Shown here piece by piece: positions 31,125 to 37,791 of a DNA stretch of 64,000 nt. This DNA comes from Mycobacteriales bacterium (GTDB lineage Bacteria; Actinomycetota; Actinomycetes; JAFAQI01), in contig DASZOU010000023.1 of assembly GCA_035550655.1 (NCBI GenBank), positions 26,416 to 90,415 of the forward strand. Reading direction: 5' to 3'. A model generated the notes under the pieces. That model was not told the DNA's origin. It did no database searches and saw only the letters and a list, made by a program, of their open reading frames with translations. The position numbers and the translations under genes are program-made. Each line of letters begins with the position of its first letter. The first letter of the stretch is position 1.

Positions 31125-33005
31125 ATGGAGGAGTCGACCAAGCCTCCCGCCGAACCCCCTCGGATCACACGACGGGCGAAGGCATCACTCTGGATCGCGG
31201 CGGCGGTGCTCGTGGGCATCGATCTGCTCGCGACCTTCGGCTTGCACTCGACCTCGAGCCGGCTGAGCTACTCGACTTTCCTGTCGCGTGCCGACGCGCA
31301 TCAAGTCGCCAGCCTGACCATCCAGTCGAACGGCTCCGCCTCCGGAAAGCTGGCCGACGGCACCACCTTCTCGACGACGGTGCCGGTGGATCTCGCCGGA
31401 CCGGACCTGATCACTCAGCTGCGCGCGGACGGGGTGGATGTCAGCGCGAGCGCGTCCTCGTCGTCGAGTTGGACCTCGACGCTGCTGGGGTGGCTGTTCC
31501 TCCTCGCACCGATCGCCTTGATCGTGTGGTGGATCCGGTCAGCAGGGCGGCGAGGCGCTGGCCTGCTTGGCGCGGGCGCGATCACCAAGTCGCGCGCAAA
31601 GGTGTTCGACGCGGAGCACCCACGCTCCACCTTCGACGACGTCGCGGGGTACGCCGGGGTGAAGGCGGAGGTCTCCGAGATCGTCGACTTCCTGCGCCAG
31701 CCCGACCGGTACGCCCGGGCGGGAGCGGTGGCACCGCGCGGCGTACTGATGCTCGGACCGCCGGGTACCGGAAAGACCCTCATCGCTCGAGCGGTTGCCG
31801 GCGAGGCGGGGGTGCCGTTCTTCTCTGTCACCGGCTCGAGCTTCGTGGAGATGTTCGTGGGCGTCGGCGCGGCGCGGGTGAGAGACCTGTTCGAGGTCGC
31901 CCGAAAGAACGCTCCCTCGATTGTGTTCGTCGACGAGATCGACGCCATCGGGCAGCGCAGAGCGGGCAGCGGAGCCGTCGTCTCGAACGATGAGCGCGAA
32001 CAGACGCTGAATCAGCTGCTCGCCGAGATGGATGGATTCGATCCGTCCGACGGCGTCGTCGTACTCGCCGCGACCAACCGCCCTGAGGTCCTCGACCTCG
32101 CGCTCGTGCGACCCGGCCGGTTCGACCGGCAGATCACGGTCCCGCTACCCACACAGAGCGATCGGCTCGCGATCCTCGAGGTCCATTGCCGCAGCAAGTC
32201 CCTCGCGGACGACGTGGACCTCGAGGTCGTCGCCCGCGCCACGCCGGGGTTCAGCGGCGCGGATCTGGCGAACCTCGCCAACGAAGCCGCGATCGCGGCC
32301 GCCCGCGACAATCGCACGACACTGTCCAGCACCGACTTCGCCGAGGCCCGGGACCGCATCACGCTGGGCCGCCGCGACGGCAGCAACGTCCTCCTCGCCG
32401 ATGAGAAGTACGCCGTCGCGACCCACGAGTCCGGGCATGCGCTGGTCGCCGCGCTGCTACCCCACGCCGACCCGGTGGAGAAGGTGACGATCCTTCCTGC
32501 CGGCCAGGCGCTCGGTGTGACGCAGCAGCTACCGATCGCCGAGCGCCACCTCTACTCGGAGAGCTACCTGCGTGACGCGCTCGCGGTGCGCCTCGGCGGC
32601 CGAGCAGCTGAGCTCGTGGCGTTGGGTGAGGCATCGACCGGCGCCGCAAACGATCTCGAGCAGGCGACCGACCTAGCCCTCAAGATGGTCCGGGAGTTCG
32701 GCTTGTCCGCCCGGCTCGGACCGGTCGGCTATCCGGCCGGCGGCTCGGTCTTCCTGGGCGGATCCTCCTCGCCGTGGTCGAGCCGGCCGTTCGCGGAACA
32801 GACCCAAGCCGCGATCGACGACGAAGTGGCGCGCCTGCTCCGGGAAGCCGAGCACACGGCGGTCACCGTCCTCGAGTCGCACCGCGAGGAGCTTCGCGCG
32901 CTGACCGACCTGCTGATGGAGCGCGAGACCGTTGACGGATCGGTCATCAGTGATCTGCTTCGCTCACGTGTGACGCGGGGCGCCACGGGTACCGCTGCTG
33001 TATGA
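31125..33005 (+). CDS. ftsH: ATP-dependent zinc metalloprotease FtsH (probably an accessory paralogue)
   Basis: Two TM segments, [26 protein letters not shown]. Confidence 0.93.
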
Positions 33006-33277
33006 GCGAAGCAATGAGTGACGCGCTGTCCAGCATCCGCGAGCATGCGCCTTCCATTCCTTCGGCCAAGGACGCGAAAGAAGCGCTGCGGTCGCACCTC
33101 CCGTCCGTGGACGCCTCGGCCATTGCCGACCGGCTGCCGAAGCCCCGGAGCAAGCGCAAGGTCATCGCGGCGCTGATCGGCGCGCTGGCGGGCGTGGCCG
33201 CAGTGGCGAGCTACCTGCGCCGCCGAAACGACGCGCCCGCCGCGAGCCTGTACACGCCTCCGTTACCGAAGCCATAG
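33002..33277 (+). CDS. Small hypothetical protein with C-terminal hydrophobic anchor
   Basis: ATGA overlap with ftsH; VIAALIGALAGVAAVASYLRRR segment. Confidence 0.6.
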   Translation: MSEAMSDALSSIREHAPSIPSAKDAKEALRSHLPSVDASAIADRLPKPRSKRKVIAALIGALAGVAAVASYLRRRNDAPAASLYTPPLPKP

Positions 33278-33279
33278 TC

Positions 33280-33320
33280 CTTCAGGAGCGCTAGTGCTTC
33301 AGGAGCGGTAGCGCTTCAGG
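33280..33320. repeat. 17-bp degenerate tandem repeat (about 2.4 copies)
   Basis: CTTCAGGAGCGCTAGTG / CTTCAGGAGCGGTAGCG / CTTCAGG. Confidence 0.7.
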
Positions 33321-33323
33321 CCA

Positions 33324-33548
33324 CTAGGCGAGCGATGAGCTCCAGCGCTCGCTCGCCTGCTGGCGCGGGTTGCCGATGTGCCAGCCACCGCAGCGACGGC
33401 AGAAGTGCGCGGCGAGCATGAAGTCCTCGTCGAAATGACGTCGGCGCGCCATCGCGTACCAAGCCTGCCGGTCGGCTTCGGTGTAGGTGTCGAAGCGCTG
33501 CCGGCCGTCGCAGGTCTCGAGGGTGACGTGGGAAGTGGTGGTACTCAC
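33324..33548 (-). CDS. Small Cys/His (C...CxxC-xx-WH) putative zinc-finger protein, copy 1
   Basis: TCDGRQRFDTYTEA...AHFCRRCGGWHIG; second copy 904 bp away. Confidence 0.75.
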   Translation of the reverse strand: MSTTTSHVTLETCDGRQRFDTYTEADRQAWYAMARRRHFDEDFMLAAHFCRRCGGWHIGNPRQQASERWSSSLA

Positions 33549-33591
33549 GCGTAGTTGATGCCCCGCCGGAAGATCGTTACGCCCCGGCGAC

Positions 33592-34149
33592 CTATCTGGT
33601 CCCCAGCTGCTCCACGAGCTCGTCACAGAACGCCTTCAGGTCGTCAGGCTTGCGCGAGGAGATCAGCACGTTCGGCCCGCCCGTGCACACCGCCACCTCC
33701 TCATCGATCCAGTCCGCCCCGGCGTTGCGCAGGTCAGTCTTTACGCTCGGCCAGCTCGTGATGCGCCGGCCACGAACGACGTCGGCCTCCACAAGCGTCC
33801 AAGGTCCGTGGCAGATCACCGCCACCGGCTTGCCCGCGTCGAAGAAGCCCTTGGCGAACCGGACCGCGTCAGTGCTCATCCGCAGCTGGTCGGGGTTCGC
33901 CACCCCACCCGGAAGGACCAGCGCGTCGTAGTCGTCGACGCGTGCATCGGTGACCGCAACGTCGACCGGAAACGAGTCAGCCTTGTCCAGATGGTTGAAC
34001 GCCTGGGTCTCCCCCGCCTCGGGAGCGACCAGGCGTGGGGTCGCGCCGGCCTGCTCGACCGCCTTCCACGGTTCGGTGAGCTCGACCTGCTCGACGCCTT
34101 CGTTCGCGACCAGAAAGGCCACGGTCTTGCCCGCCAGTGTGTTCGCCAT
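33592..34149 (-). CDS. pfpI: PfpI/DJ-1 family type 1 glutamine amidotransferase-like protein
   Basis: GVEQVEL, LPGGVANPD, AVICHGPW, SRKPDDL. Confidence 0.9.
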   Translation of the reverse strand: MANTLAGKTVAFLVANEGVEQVELTEPWKAVEQAGATPRLVAPEAGETQAFNHLDKADSFPVDVAVTDARVDDYDALVLPGGVANPDQLRMSTDAVRFAKGFFDAGKPVAVICHGPWTLVEADVVRGRRITSWPSVKTDLRNAGADWIDEEVAVCTGGPNVLISSRKPDDLKAFCDELVEQLGTR

Positions 34150-34227
34150 GTCGTCTCCCACTCGTTCAGTCTGGTGGGGACTTCCCAGCGCGGGGAGGCG
34201 TATGCGCAGCCGGCGGCGGGCATTCGG

Positions 34228-34473
34228 CTACGCGAGCGACGCGCTCCAACGTTCGGCGCCCTGCCGGCGCGGGTTGCCGACGTGCCAGCCGTCGCACCGA
34301 CGGCAGAAGTGCGCCGCCAGCATGAAGTCCTCGTCGAAGTGGCGCCTGCGCGCCATCGCGTACCAGGCCTGGCGATCCGCCTCCGGATAGGTGTCGAAGC
34401 GTTGCCGGCCTTCGCACGACTCGACTGACGTCGCCGAAGCGGTGCCCGCGCTTGAGGGGTGCCTGTAGGTCAT
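34228..34473 (-). CDS. Small Cys/His putative zinc-finger protein, copy 2
   Basis: SCEGRQRFDTYPEA...AHFCRRCDGWHVG; own ATG with GGAAGG RBS; 54/63 aa identical to copy 1 over the core. Confidence 0.75.
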   Translation of the reverse strand: MTYRHPSSAGTASATSVESCEGRQRFDTYPEADRQAWYAMARRRHFDEDFMLAAHFCRRCDGWHVGNPRRQGAERWSASLA

Positions 34474-34478
34474 GGTCG

Positions 34479-35283
34479 TTACGCCTTCCCGGGCGCTGTC
34501 GCGCCGCTCGCCTGCATGTAGGGCCAAATCAACGTCGACACGGTTTTCGATGGTGTCGATGCCGTAGGTGAAGGCGGGTCCGTGCGTCAGGACGGCAAGG
34601 AAGTAGCGGCGGCCGTCACCCTTCACGTACGCGATGCTGTTCACCTGCCACCCCCCACCGTGCACGCTGGACAGCGGAACCCACCCGTTCTTGAGAGCCA
34701 CGCTGACGCCCTTCGGGAGACACGGCGCGATTCCCCAGCACTGGCTCTTCGTCACTGACCGCATCAGTCCGAGCTCGAAGCGGCGGTCGCGGGTCGAAAG
34801 CAGATCGTTGGACGACGCGAGCAGGCGCAGCAAGGTCACCTGGTCGGAGGCTGAGGTGCGGGTAAGCCCCCACGACGTACTCGCTGACGTCTCCGACATC
34901 CCGGCCGCTGCATCGAACCGGTCCAGACCGGCGGCGCCGCCGATCTCGCCGTACAAAGCGGACGCGGCGTCGTTGTCCGACTGCTCGATCATCGCCGTCG
35001 ACAAGGTGCGCTGCGCGGCGGACAGGCCGTGGGTCCGATGCAACAAGGCAGCCAGGATGTCGACCTTGACGATGCTCGCGGTGTAGGCCCGCGCGGCAGG
35101 GCGCCAGGTCCACTCCCGGCCGGCCACCGCGTCGTAAACGGCCACGCTGGCAGATCCCTGGCGGCTTGCGAGATAGCGCGCGACGACCTCGTGCAACGAC
35201 GGAGCGGCCGCCCTGGTCGGCGTTAGCCCGCACGAGGCGACCAAGGCGCCAAGAACGACAGCGGCGCACGCTGTTCTGCCCAC
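34479..35283 (-). pseudogene. Secreted class A beta-lactamase-like serine hydrolase with a +1 frameshift near the 3' end
   Basis: Signal peptide, SIVK (SxxK), SDN, KNG; removing one base from the A4 run (34544-34547) restores ...IETVSTLIWPYMQASGATAPGKA-stop at 34479. Confidence 0.7.
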
Positions 35284-35341
35284 GCATCGACTTTCAATGC
35301 CGACCGGGCGTGGCGAATAGTGCCGAATGTCGGGCAGGCCT

Positions 35342-35355
35342 GGGTCGGTCGGCCC
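35342..35355. promoter_or_regulatory. DosR-like box (distal) upstream of ppsA
   Basis: GGGTCGGTCGGCCC followed by TAA. Confidence 0.5.
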
Positions 35356-35459
35356 TAATCACGACGGCAGCGGGCGAGCACCATCGACTCGAAGGAGTCG
35401 CAGTGCGGAGGAGCCTCATCGACGACCCCGCCGCGTGCCGCGTCGCCAACGTCGCGGTT

Positions 35460-35473
35460 GGGACCTTCTCCCC
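35460..35473. promoter_or_regulatory. DosR-like box (proximal) upstream of ppsA
   Basis: GGGACCTTCTCCCC, one mismatch, 35 nt before ATG. Confidence 0.6.
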
Positions 35474-35508
35474 TGGCGAGTGACGGCAGCCGGGCGCATC
35501 GTCGGGCC

Positions 35509-37791
35509 ATGACTGGCGGATCAGTGCGGCCGTTCTCCGAGTTGCGTGTGACGGATGTCGAAGTCGCCGGCGGCAAGGGCGCGAATCTCGGCGAGCTGAC
35601 AGCCGCGGGCCTGCCGGTGCCGCCTGGCTTCGTCATCACCGGGCAGGTGTTCCTCGACGCGTTGGACGAGGCAGGCGTCAGGCAGGACCTGCAAGACCTC
35701 TGCGCGGGCGTGCATCCGGACGACCCCCATGAGCTCCAAGCACGCGCGGAGGAGATGCAGTTACTCGTTCACAAGGCACGCGTGCCGGATTCCACTCGGG
35801 ATGCCATTCTTACCGCCTACCACGATCTCGGCCGCGACTGCCTGGTCGCGGTTCGTTCCTCAGCCACCGCCGAGGACACCGCCGGCACGTCGTTCGCGGG
35901 CATGAACGAGACCTTCACCAACGTGCGCGGCGACGCCGAGCTGCTTGCGCGGATCGTCGACTGCTGGGCGTCGTTGTACGCCGCGCGGGTCGTGACCTAC
36001 CGCGCCAGCCAGGGAATGACGGCCGAGCCGGTACTCGCGGTCGTCGTGCAGCGGATGGTCGACTCGGAGCGCTCGGGCGTGATGTTCACGACCGACCCGA
36101 CAACGGGTGACCCCCGCCATCTCGTCATCGAGGCGGCCTTCGGACTGGGTGAGGTCGTCGTCTCCGGTCAGGTCGAGCCCGACACCTACGTCGTCGACAA
36201 GGCAGGCCCGCGAATCCTGTCGGCCAGGGTGGGAACGAAGTCGTTCAAGCTGGTTCGCGGCAAGGAACACGGCAACCGTCGCATCGACCTTCCGGCGAAG
36301 AAGTCAGGCGCCCGGGTGCTCGACGACAGCGAAGTCCTGGCTGTCGCCCAACTGGGGCTTCGCATCGCCGAGCACTACGGCGATCCCCAGGATGTCGAGT
36401 GGGCGATCGAGAACGGCCAGTACTGGATCGTCCAGTCGCGACCCATCACGACCTTGGACGACGCCGCACTTGCCGACCCCGCCGCAGCAGCCGTCGCGTT
36501 GCTCACAGGTATGCCCGCCGCGCCTGGTCTGGCGACCGGCAAGGTGCGGATCCTGCGCAGCCCGGCGGAAGGCGACCAGCTGGTCGCCGGCGAGGTGCTG
36601 GTCGCTCCGATGACCAACCCGGACTGGCTGCCGACGATGCGGCGGGCGGCCGCGCTCGTGACGGACGGCGGCGGCATGACCTGTCACGCGGCCGTGGTGG
36701 CTCGTGAGCTGCGGGTTCCGTGCATCGTGGGTGCGCGAAAGGCGACGTCGGTCTTGCGCGACGGCGAGCTCGTCACGGTGGACGGCGGCACCGGGCAGGT
36801 GTTCCCGGGAGCGTTGCCGGCGGTGCGGGTGACCGAGCAGCCGACCTCGCCCGTGCCGGCCGGGCCGGCGGCGGAGACGATCGGCACGAAGCTGTACGTC
36901 AACATCGCGACCCCCGAGCATGCTGGGGAGGTCAGCCATCAAGCCGTGGACGGCGTCGGGCTGCTGCGGGCCGAGGTCATGCTCACCGACGCGCTCGGCG
37001 GCGTGCATCCCCGCGAGCTCATGGCCCGCGGCGAGAGCGAGACCTTCGTCAGCTCGCTCACCGAGTCCCTGCTGCAGATCACCAGGGCCTTCTTCCCTCG
37101 GCCCGTGATCTACCGCAGCACAGACTTCCGCACGAACGAGTTCCGCGGCCTTGAAGGTGGCGCTGCCTACGAGCCCGTGGAGGCGAACCCCATGATCGGC
37201 TTTCGTGGCTGCTATCGCTACGTGCGTGATCCGGAGATGTTCCGTCTCGAGCTCGCCGCACTCAGCCGCGTCAGGGAGGAGACGCCGAACCTGCACCTGA
37301 TGATCCCGTTCGTGCGCACGCGTTGGGAGCTCGAGGCCTGCCTGGAACTGGTCGACGCGAGCCCACTCGGGTCACACCGCGACCTGCACCGGTGGGTCAT
37401 GGCAGAGGTCCCGTCGGTCGTCTACCGCATCGCCGACTACGCAGCGATGGGAATCGACGGGGTGTCCATCGGGTCGAATGACCTGACGCAGCTGATGCTC
37501 GGCGTCGACCGCGACTCGGAGACCTGCGCCGAGCTGTTCCGGGAGAGCGACGCCGCTGTCCTCGCTGCGATCGAGGCGATCATCGCCGCGAGCCGGGAGG
37601 CGGGCATCACGTCCTCGCTGTGCGGCCAGGCTCCGAGCAACGACCCCGACTTCGCGGCTCACCTGGTCCGGATGGGGATCACCTCGATCTCCGTCACCCC
37701 CGACGCAGTCGACCGCACCCGCCACGCGATCGCTGCCGCGGAGCGACGGCTTCTGCTCGACGCTGCGCGTCCGCTCGTTCACCCGGGGTGA
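35509..37791 (+). CDS. ppsA: Phosphoenolpyruvate synthase (pyruvate, water dikinase)
   Basis: [33 protein letters not shown] phospho-His, [19 protein letters not shown]. Confidence 0.93.

Follow-up and report, generated by a model that had tools for sequence, protein, structure and literature searches.

In this study, we describe a stretch of 64,000 nucleotides (nt) from an uncultured Mycobacteriales bacterium (assembly GCA_035550655.1, contig DASZOU010000023.1, positions 26,416 to 90,415; "the window" means this whole stretch, and coordinates are counted from its first letter), in which two small co-oriented genes, small1 and small2, stand on either side of a gene of the DJ-1/PfpI/YhbO family, pfpI. 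Regarding the architecture and evolution of this locus, we are confident, short of certainty, that small1 and small2 are old paralogues, that small1, which lies beside the convergent membrane-protein gene tm91, is the ancestral copy, that small2 is a rewired one, and that the locus is no recombination cassette. The best overall explanation goes further and is held with less assurance: the two genes would be old paralogues maintained by selection, members of a stress island with diverged expression control. Feature coordinates are collected in Table 1.

Age, selection and rewiring of the two copies

The initial annotation had described two co-oriented open reading frames (ORFs) of 74 and 81 amino acids (aa) around a PfpI/DJ-1 gene, and this description is borne out by our ORF and family searches. 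A repeat search returned a single direct-repeat family of 197 nt (33324-33520 and 34228-34424) with a spacing of 904. One Logan contig from a soil metagenome run (3747 nt, depth 37) covers positions 32800-35593 with 0 differences, and in two other studies, contigs of low depth span the pfpI/copy-1 and pfpI/copy-2 junctions; the small1-pfpI-small2 layout is genuine, and the possibility of a mis-assembled duplication, raised at the outset, is contradicted by the match of the 3747-nt contig to the whole arrangement. None of the three ORFs has an exact match in a collection of 15 billion proteins.

The two repeat copies are identical at 165 of 197 positions (84%), the longest perfect run being 20 nt, and the proteins share 54 of 62 core residues (87%). 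In pairwise alignment, the homology stops at its 3' end exactly at the stop codons; upstream, it continues with indels and heavy divergence up to a common GGCGTAACGA about 75 nt 5' of the first Cys codon. Over the core of 62 codons, 21 synonymous and 9 non-synonymous differences separate the copies, which corresponds to a synonymous divergence (dS) of 0.90, a non-synonymous divergence (dN) of 0.064 and a dN/dS of 0.07. The term "near-identical" used in the initial annotation, thus, suits the protein core but not the DNA, where 84% identity goes with synonymous divergence near saturation.

small1 is closer to its orthologue in the nearest genome, G013 (88% nucleotide identity, dS 0.40), than to small2, and a three-point decomposition assigns about 0.40 synonymous changes per site to the small1 branch and about 0.50 to that of small2. 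In a maximum-likelihood tree, small1, small2 and the G013 gene form a trichotomy in one sub-clade of the genus, and monophyly of the two copies is not rejected by the approximately unbiased test (p-AU 0.41). Because of the dS of 0.90 and the distances to G013, the duplication is old, of about the age of the split from the nearest sequenced species, and such a dS shows that no gene conversion or homogenisation has occurred between the copies since. The branch dN/dS values (about 0.05 for small1 and 0.09 for small2) show strong purifying selection on both copies, in line with what had been suspected from their mostly conservative differences.

Co-oriented repeats of about 200 nt flanking one gene are a layout suited to RecA-dependent recombination, and excision or amplification of pfpI by this route had indeed been proposed. 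The minimal efficient processing segment of E. coli RecA is about 23-27 bp; at 84% identity, the 20-nt longest run shared by the repeats is at or below it. Contigs of eight metagenome runs, drawn from several studies, contain no deletion or circle joints between the repeats and no deleted forms, although assembled contigs drop rare variants, and all other genomes hold a single copy. With such short identical runs, a dS of 0.9 without gene conversion and no joints, we consider recombinational excision or amplification very improbable.

The divergence between the paralogues extends to their expression signals. Pairwise and multiple alignments place a vestige of the small1 promoter-like element in front of small2, in which the -35 part (GCGTAACGAcC) is kept at 34474-34484, the -10 is degenerate (AGGCAC at 34459-34464) and GCG stands where the GTG start used to be (34447-34449). 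The only start left for small2 is an ATG inside the former promoter spacer, with a Shine-Dalgarno (SD) sequence GGAAGG at 34484-34489, 10 nt upstream. As it has no -10 box, small2 is probably transcribed from upstream, together with the lipoprotein gene blaLike.

The product of blaLike matches PF13354 (E 1e-15) and carries the lipobox LVASC. In this assembly, its frame has no stop before small2 and yields a 351-aa ORF. The orthologue of genome G011 ends in VSEIIWPYMSVAG followed by a stop codon, while the window encodes VSTLIWPYMQASGATAPGKA followed by a stop codon in another frame; since the C-terminus known from G011 is encoded in a different frame, the window holds one extra base near 34542. 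This base swaps the last 21 or so residues of blaLike and fuses its frame to small2. All contigs from the study to which the window's population belongs carry it, and a contig from another study has one base fewer at 34542, which restores the C-terminus and lets the frame end in TAA, 5 nt short of the small2 ATG, so that two natural alleles appear to exist. We, thus, read the joining of the two frames as a strain-level frameshift in the lipoprotein gene and not as a designed fusion; the junction of the unshifted allele looks like a typical coupled arrangement. As blaLike is absent from five related genomes, it cannot serve to date the insertion of small2.

With its original promoter and start lost and its frame fused to a lipoprotein ORF by a frameshift, small2 could also be a decaying, non-functional remnant: the -10 is degenerate, the GTG is gone, the gene is in frame with blaLike in this strain, and no other genome retains a second copy. 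This reading is hard to reconcile with a branch dN/dS of about 0.09 over some 0.5 synonymous changes per site, with a core free of stops and indels, and with the conservation in small2 of the four candidate metal ligands and of all family-invariant residues; the new ATG preceded by GGAAGG and the blaLike stop just before it in the unshifted allele speak in the same sense. We regard decay as improbable and keep to the reading of small2 as a selected, rewired paralogue.

Genomic context and stress-type promoters

The small gene was found in 10 of the 12 genomes of the window's genus; outside the genus, 1 of 26 genomes of the order gave a weaker, divergent match. Two good copies exist only in the window genome, and the nine other gene-bearing genomes of the genus have one. 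By tblastn of the neighbour proteins, tm91 is tail-to-tail with the small gene in 14/14 loci (10/10, plus four more). The tm91 family (22 clusters; 11/12 genomes of the genus) is as narrow as the small-protein family, and nothing meaningful was found for it in Pfam. Its members have a conserved N-terminus, one transmembrane helix flanked by Arg/Lys and an invariant C-terminus, YTPPLPKP, and the orthologues (P0088-P0108) carry 1-6 copies of a repeat, KDAxxAV(K/R)SxLPS, resembling those of late embryogenesis abundant (LEA) proteins. In the absence of a signal peptide, the protein looks tail-anchored rather than LPXTG-anchored; several public records label it as an LPXTG cell-wall anchor protein. 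The gene order orf_29612-FtsH-tm91 is found again in G015.

An unstranded contig from a soil metatranscriptome covers 33012-33290, that is, tm91 alone without neighbours, and begins 10 nt inside the gene, which fits a separate, leaderless transcript. Between the small gene and tm91, the convergent gap measures 4 to about 48 nt across genomes and no intrinsic terminators were found in it; the small1 and tm91 transcripts probably overlap at their 3' ends. In the window, this gap is filled by tandem copies of a 17-nt unit, TAGTGCTTCAGGAGCGC, with TAG/CTAG in each unit; G010 has an independent 15-nt repeat in three copies, CTCGCCTAGCCACCC, which likewise starts in the last codons of the small gene, and the gaps of other genomes are only 4-20 nt long. 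Folding of the tandem repeat is no better than that of shuffled sequence (z = -1.0).

The gene between the paralogues matches PF01965 (DJ-1_PfpI; E 2.3e-48) and TIGR01382 (155.6 bits for a cut-off of 139.05), and its product carries AVICHGPW, the nucleophile Cys-His elbow motif; it scores far below the cut-off of the equivalog NF040823, deglycase PfpI (119 vs. 330). Its true start is probably the ATG at 34149, favoured by an SD sequence (GGGAGA, 34154-34159) and by the length (185 aa) and N-terminus of the orthologues (MANTLAGK, MSDELAGK, MANQLDGK).

The association of the small gene with pfpI and with wider general- and oxidative-stress genes is real but not obligatory. Indeed, in 6 of the 14 genus-type loci, no more than about 1.5 kb separates pfpI from the small gene, and the gene order varies: pfpI-small in G014 and the window, hemerythrin-pfpI-ahpC-small in G017 and a second metagenome-assembled genome (MAG), pfpI-x-small in G010, and small/tm91-pfpI in locus L040. 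Hemerythrin, PfpI, AhpC and the small gene follow one another in locus L005, and catalase, hemerythrin and ligase/LigD genes lie near the small gene in L006. In G016 (locus L025, 8925-9040), pfpI is internally deleted to a 39-codon remnant (beginning MANELSG, with GGPNVLVTSRKPDDLKAFC inside) in which the C-terminal 30 residues are joined on, and a LigD gene separates it from an intact small gene; a 376-aa open frame around this small gene, considered as a second fusion, is merely an ORF over the out-of-frame LigD gene. In G013, pfpI is absent from the locus and the small gene is directly 3' of an acyl-CoA-synthetase-like gene, and no pfpI lies within 7 kb of the small gene in G015, G018, G019 and G011. 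The wider ancestral order appears to be the acyl-CoA-synthetase-like gene, (hemerythrin), pfpI, (ahpC or ligD) and the small gene, with tm91 convergent.

Distant relatives extend this picture. P0024 shows about 49% identity to small1 over a 41-residue tblastn segment (E 4.5e-8 with the family profile), and its gene runs 8 nt (ATGTCTGA) into the start of an orthologous PfpI gene, whose product is 70% identical to the window's. On its metagenome contig (L034, 1-2340), small, PfpI and hemerythrin genes form a compact operon after a canonical GTTT-N15-GGGTAG; a GGDEF gene is convergent with this operon. Another relative, P0027, sits beside genes for an RsbW-like kinase and a PP2C phosphatase, and beside trehalose genes.

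Could the small protein then be a dedicated partner of this PfpI subfamily, whether regulator, inhibitor, chaperone or adaptor, acting in homo- or heteromeric forms or under two modes of expression, with one copy co-transcribed 5' of pfpI and the other 3' of it? The recurrence of pfpI in 6/14 loci despite rearrangements and the 8-nt overlap in the P0024 lineage, whose small-then-pfpI order is repeated by small2, argue for such a role. The loci without pfpI (G013, and the four genomes in which none lies within 7 kb) and the remnant beside an intact small gene in G016 argue against it; moreover, the invariant neighbour is tm91, not pfpI, and common membership of a regulon accounts equally well for the clustering. 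We, thus, find a dedicated partnership with PfpI doubtful; the homo- or heterodimeric regulator of pfpI suggested initially is a conjecture. The initial annotation would have been contradicted had homologues proved single-copy and unlinked to pfpI; the first half agrees with the nine other genus genomes, and the second is at odds with the six linked loci.

In our preferred reading, what the neighbouring genes share is their regulation. All ten small1 orthologues (10/10) are preceded by GCGTAACGATC(T/A)T, 8-9 nt, GGG(C/T)A(T/G), 9 nt and GTG (in promoter form, GCGT-N15/16-GGG(C/T)A(T/G)-N9-GTG), an element conserved while the flanking sequence is unrelated, and whose strict form is unique in the genome. 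In 7/7 orthologues, tm91 is preceded, 9-10 nt 5' of its ATG, by G(T/C)(G/T)T-N15-16-GGG(T/C/A)A(T/C). For pfpI, we found GCAT-N15-GGGAAG 31 nt 5' of the ATG in the window, GTGT-N14-GGGTAG-N9-ATG in G014 (L021) and GCAT-N15-GGGAAG-N9-ATG in G010 (L022); TGGGAAGTCCCC upstream of pfpI, considered as a DosR-like half-site, fits better as the -10 of the GCAT-N15-GGGAA promoter common to orthologous pfpI genes.

The SigF consensus of M. smegmatis is GTTT-N14-19-GGGTA, with variants GTGT, GCTT and GGGCA, and for many sites the distance to the start codon is 8-11 nt (PMC4694148). Judging by their sequences, the elements of small1, tm91 and pfpI match this SigF/sigma-B-type form at a conserved distance from the start, and small1 is probably leaderless. 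The likeness to the M. smegmatis regulon holds both for the promoter (G-N-N-T, N14-16, GGG(T/C/A)A, 8-11 nt before the start) and for the neighbouring gene types (hemerythrin, catalase, Dps-like and trehalose genes), since hemerythrins, catalases, Dps and trehalose genes are members of that regulon (PMC4694148); a difference is that neither the small protein nor tm91 has a homologue in mycobacteria. In the genome of the window, a single sigma factor of the SigB/F/G type passes the curated cut-off, and its gene lies behind an RsbW-like gene. The GTAACGATC located some 220 nt 5' of this sigF-like gene is a coincidence, being coding sequence of the RsbW-like gene (NRVTITL). On balance, we find membership of an alternative-sigma stress regulon reasonably likely.

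A Cys3His family resembling small phage proteins

No meaningful Pfam or NCBIfam match was obtained for small1, small2 or ten remote relatives. A search of 5.8 billion proteins returned 19 clusters of the small-protein family, all from soil metagenomes or MAGs labelled Mycobacteriales/Frankiaceae, at 64-78% identity; about 65 further remote relatives, 55-115 aa long, came from a HMMER profile search of 1.8 billion cluster representatives (E 4e-9 to 1e-3). In the resulting 78-sequence alignment, C50, C53 and H57 never vary, and at least 90% of the sequences keep C13, A25 and G59; the motif spacing is Cys-x36-Cys-x2-Cys-x3-His and the consensus C-x-G-K-x-R-F-x-T-x-x-E-A...R-R-R...L-x-A-Y-x-C-x-x-C-x-G-W-H-x-G. 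Both small1 and small2 keep every ligand (C13, C50, C53, H57) and the conserved family positions, and the conservation of these ligands leads us to predict that they bind zinc.

The window proteins give weak direct matches to PHROGs (E 5.6e-4 to 3.8e-3), while the intermediates of the profile search match the same PHROGs (15216, 14788, 16009 and 3424, all annotated as of unknown function) at E 1e-6 to 1e-9. AlphaFold2 (AF2) models, with a predicted local distance difference test (pLDDT) score of about 72, show a hairpin with C13, a helix and a hairpin with the CxxC at its turn; their fold matches in BFVD reach a probability of 1.0 with E-values of only 0.01-0.4 (0.01-0.06 for those at 0.98-1.0), and all come from phages, those of Gordonia, Mycobacterium, Caulobacter and Agrobacterium among them, in which they are uncharacterised. 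Foldseek searches of the PDB with the two models gave no match below E = 3. With small1 as query, tblastn gave no match in 50,697 phage records, phage homologues being reached only via remote family members. The resemblance to phage-type zinc fingers suggested by the initial annotation, thus, finds support at the superfamily level, from the matches to PHROGs 15216, 14788 and 16009, the BFVD folds (of marginal E-value) and the 65 or so relatives with CxxC-x3-H.

The annotated phage homologues are hypothetical proteins in early or DNA-metabolism modules. This is the case for the homologue of Klebsiella phage Seifer (AYJ72826.1), whose neighbours are exonuclease VIII, endonuclease VII and a methylase, and for pZL12.5c of Streptomyces phage ZL12, with a RuvC-like gene, SSB and a sigma factor nearby; one metagenomic relative lies between a VRR-NUC nuclease and an integrase. 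The phage proteins of the four PHROGs resemble the window family in size (55-90 aa), in the same four candidate metal ligands, in the pattern C-x-G-K/R-x-R-F/Y-x-T...E-A...R-R-R...A-Y-x-C-x-x-C-x-G-W-H-x-G and in the predicted hairpin-helix-hairpin. They differ in neighbourhood (exonuclease VIII, endonuclease VII, VRR-NUC or RuvC-like genes) and in charge: remote and phage relatives are strongly basic (median isoelectric point, pI, about 10.2), whereas the window family is near neutral (median pI about 8), the genus family and other stress-linked relatives together standing at about 7-8. The window family has a tail of its own, GNPRxxxAERWSxSLA, a chromosomal and genus-fixed location, a stress-type promoter and a constant membrane-protein neighbour. 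By these comparisons, it appears as a chromosomally fixed, genus-restricted and distant branch of a large group of small phage proteins.

Scans of genome and metagenome contigs yielded further genus members and four low-GC, probably phage-borne relatives, and no additional PfpI-linked lineage. A metagenome protein of 402 aa, P0022, has at least five tandem C...CxxC-x-WH domains separated by Ser/Asn-rich low-complexity linkers; as it looks eukaryote-like, the domain may also occur as a repeat array outside phages and bacteria.

Since the superfamily is mostly phage-borne, the small genes could be cargo of a degraded prophage or mobile element. No phage, integrase or transposase genes surround the locus in the window, its position and host-type promoter are conserved in 10/12 genomes of the genus, and PADLOC models for anti-phage defence match none of small1, small2, tm91 and pfpI; such an origin of the locus is the least credible of the alternatives considered here.

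Three other known systems share features with the proteins of this locus. Zinc-associated anti-sigma (ZAS) factors of the RsrA type, the zinc-thiolate redox switches of actinobacteria, are also small cytoplasmic proteins with three Cys and one His as candidate ligands and an oxidative-stress context. Their signature, H-x3-C-x2-C, lies on helices, unlike the order C-x2-C-x3-H on a predicted beta-hairpin in the small protein; with a reversed motif, no adjacent sigma gene in any locus and no match to Pfam zf-HC2, we rejected this identity. Ribosomal protein bL32 is alike in a basic RR-x-H segment followed by C-x-x-C-G-x-W-H and is the best, non-significant PDB profile match (E 0.028 over 32 residues); in the fold searches, small chains of mycobacterial 50S structures (about 48 modelled residues, identity not established) also recur as weak matches. 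It was discarded too, as the small protein has a single CxxC, no second knuckle and no bL32 N-terminus, and Foldseek gives E-values above 5. Finally, ElaB and YqjD of E. coli are C-tail-anchored stress proteins to which tm91 is comparable in its short cytoplasmic helical N-domain, single C-terminal membrane helix and stationary-phase-type promoter; there is no sequence relationship, and tm91 differs by its variable KDAxxAV repeats and invariant YTPPLPKP.

Table 1. Features of the small1-pfpI-small2 locus, in window coordinates.
Feature	Coordinates	Strand	Description
FtsH-like gene	31125-33005		626 aa; overlap with tm91 start is ATGA
tm91 SigF-like promoter candidate	32968..32992	+	GTGT-N15-GGGTAC, 9 nt 5' of ATG, within 3' end of FtsH-like gene
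tm91	33002..33277	+	91-aa tail-anchored membrane-protein gene, convergent with small1
Tandem repeat	33275..33320	.	17-nt unit, 2.7 copies; fills gap between tm91 and small1 stop codons
small1	33324..33548	-	74-aa Cys3His protein gene, GTG start; ancestral copy
small1 promoter-like element	33558..33582	-	GCGT(AACGATC)-N15-GGGCAT, end 9 nt 5' of GTG
pfpI (DJ-1/PfpI/YhbO family)	33592..34149	-	185 aa from ATG 34149; ORF open back to GTG 34161
pfpI SigF-like promoter candidate	34181..34205	-	GCAT-N15-GGGAAG, then SD GGGAGA
small2	34228..34473	-	81-aa paralogue, ATG start
Vestige of duplicated promoter before small2	34447..34484	-	From pairwise and multiple alignments
blaLike	34474..35283	-	Class-A-beta-lactamase-like lipoprotein gene

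A proposed history and its significance

We propose the following history. small2 stems from an old duplication of the coding sequence and promoter of small1; it has retained the -35, lost the -10 and the GTG, and gained a new SD sequence and ATG behind the lipoprotein gene. small1, tm91 and pfpI would be separate, mostly leaderless units of a general-stress regulon of the SigF/sigma-B type, in a stress island which, in relatives, also includes hemerythrin, catalase, AhpC and LigD genes. The paralogues would persist through expression under different control, and the small protein may work together with PfpI, the membrane protein or both under stationary-phase or oxidative stress. The pfpI sandwich itself would be a by-product of duplication inside the island and not a functional cassette.

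Several points weigh against this explanation. None of the RNA contigs covers small1 or small2. A loose form of the promoter pattern has 45 matches with downstream ORFs in this GC-rich genome and defines no regulon alone. The -35 region of the window element, GTAACGATC, is conserved well beyond the needs of a SigF -35, and could be an operator or the -35 of an extracytoplasmic function (ECF), SigD-like sigma factor rather than that of SigF; indeed, the small1 element contains GTAACG, equal to the -35 reported for SigD of M. tuberculosis (quoted in PMC13537577). The zinc claim is based on conserved ligands, the AF2 models being of moderate quality (pLDDT 72) and having no significant PDB neighbour. 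Lastly, the upstream lipoprotein ORF and small2 share one frame in this strain, which makes the mode of translation of small2 uncertain.

With regard to molecular function, we are accordingly more tentative than about the evolution of the locus. A small binding protein that holds zinc and may be redox-sensitive is one possible role among others, and the loss of the positive charge typical of the phage relatives favours a protein partner (PfpI or tm91) over nucleic acid. Put more boldly, the family might be a phage-derived Cys3His mini-protein domesticated into a SigF-type stress response, as a zinc/redox partner of the PfpI-family enzyme and/or of the LEA-like, YTPPLPKP-bearing tm91; this remains speculative.

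The superfamily as such is already known: it is widespread in phages and catalogued in PHROGs, uncharacterised and without a Pfam model. What is new is, on the one hand, a variant fixed on the chromosomes of one genus, with a promoter type of its own, a specific C-terminal tail, a fixed membrane neighbour and a recurrent PfpI/hemerythrin context and, on the other hand, a lineage-specific paralogue with changed expression signals. The significance is otherwise modest, the family being confined to uncultured soil MAGs and the sandwich having no special mechanism. If the bolder reading is true, the locus would hold an undescribed stress module of two or three genes, whose second copy is a paralogue kept via promoter loss and capture by another operon. 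With its stress-type promoter, its fixed neighbour and its linkage to PfpI, hemerythrin and catalase, the subfamily would offer a tractable entry to the phage superfamily, and the pair formed by a leaderless gene with its own promoter (small1) and an SD-led gene embedded in an operon (small2) would be a clean natural case of regulatory divergence after duplication.

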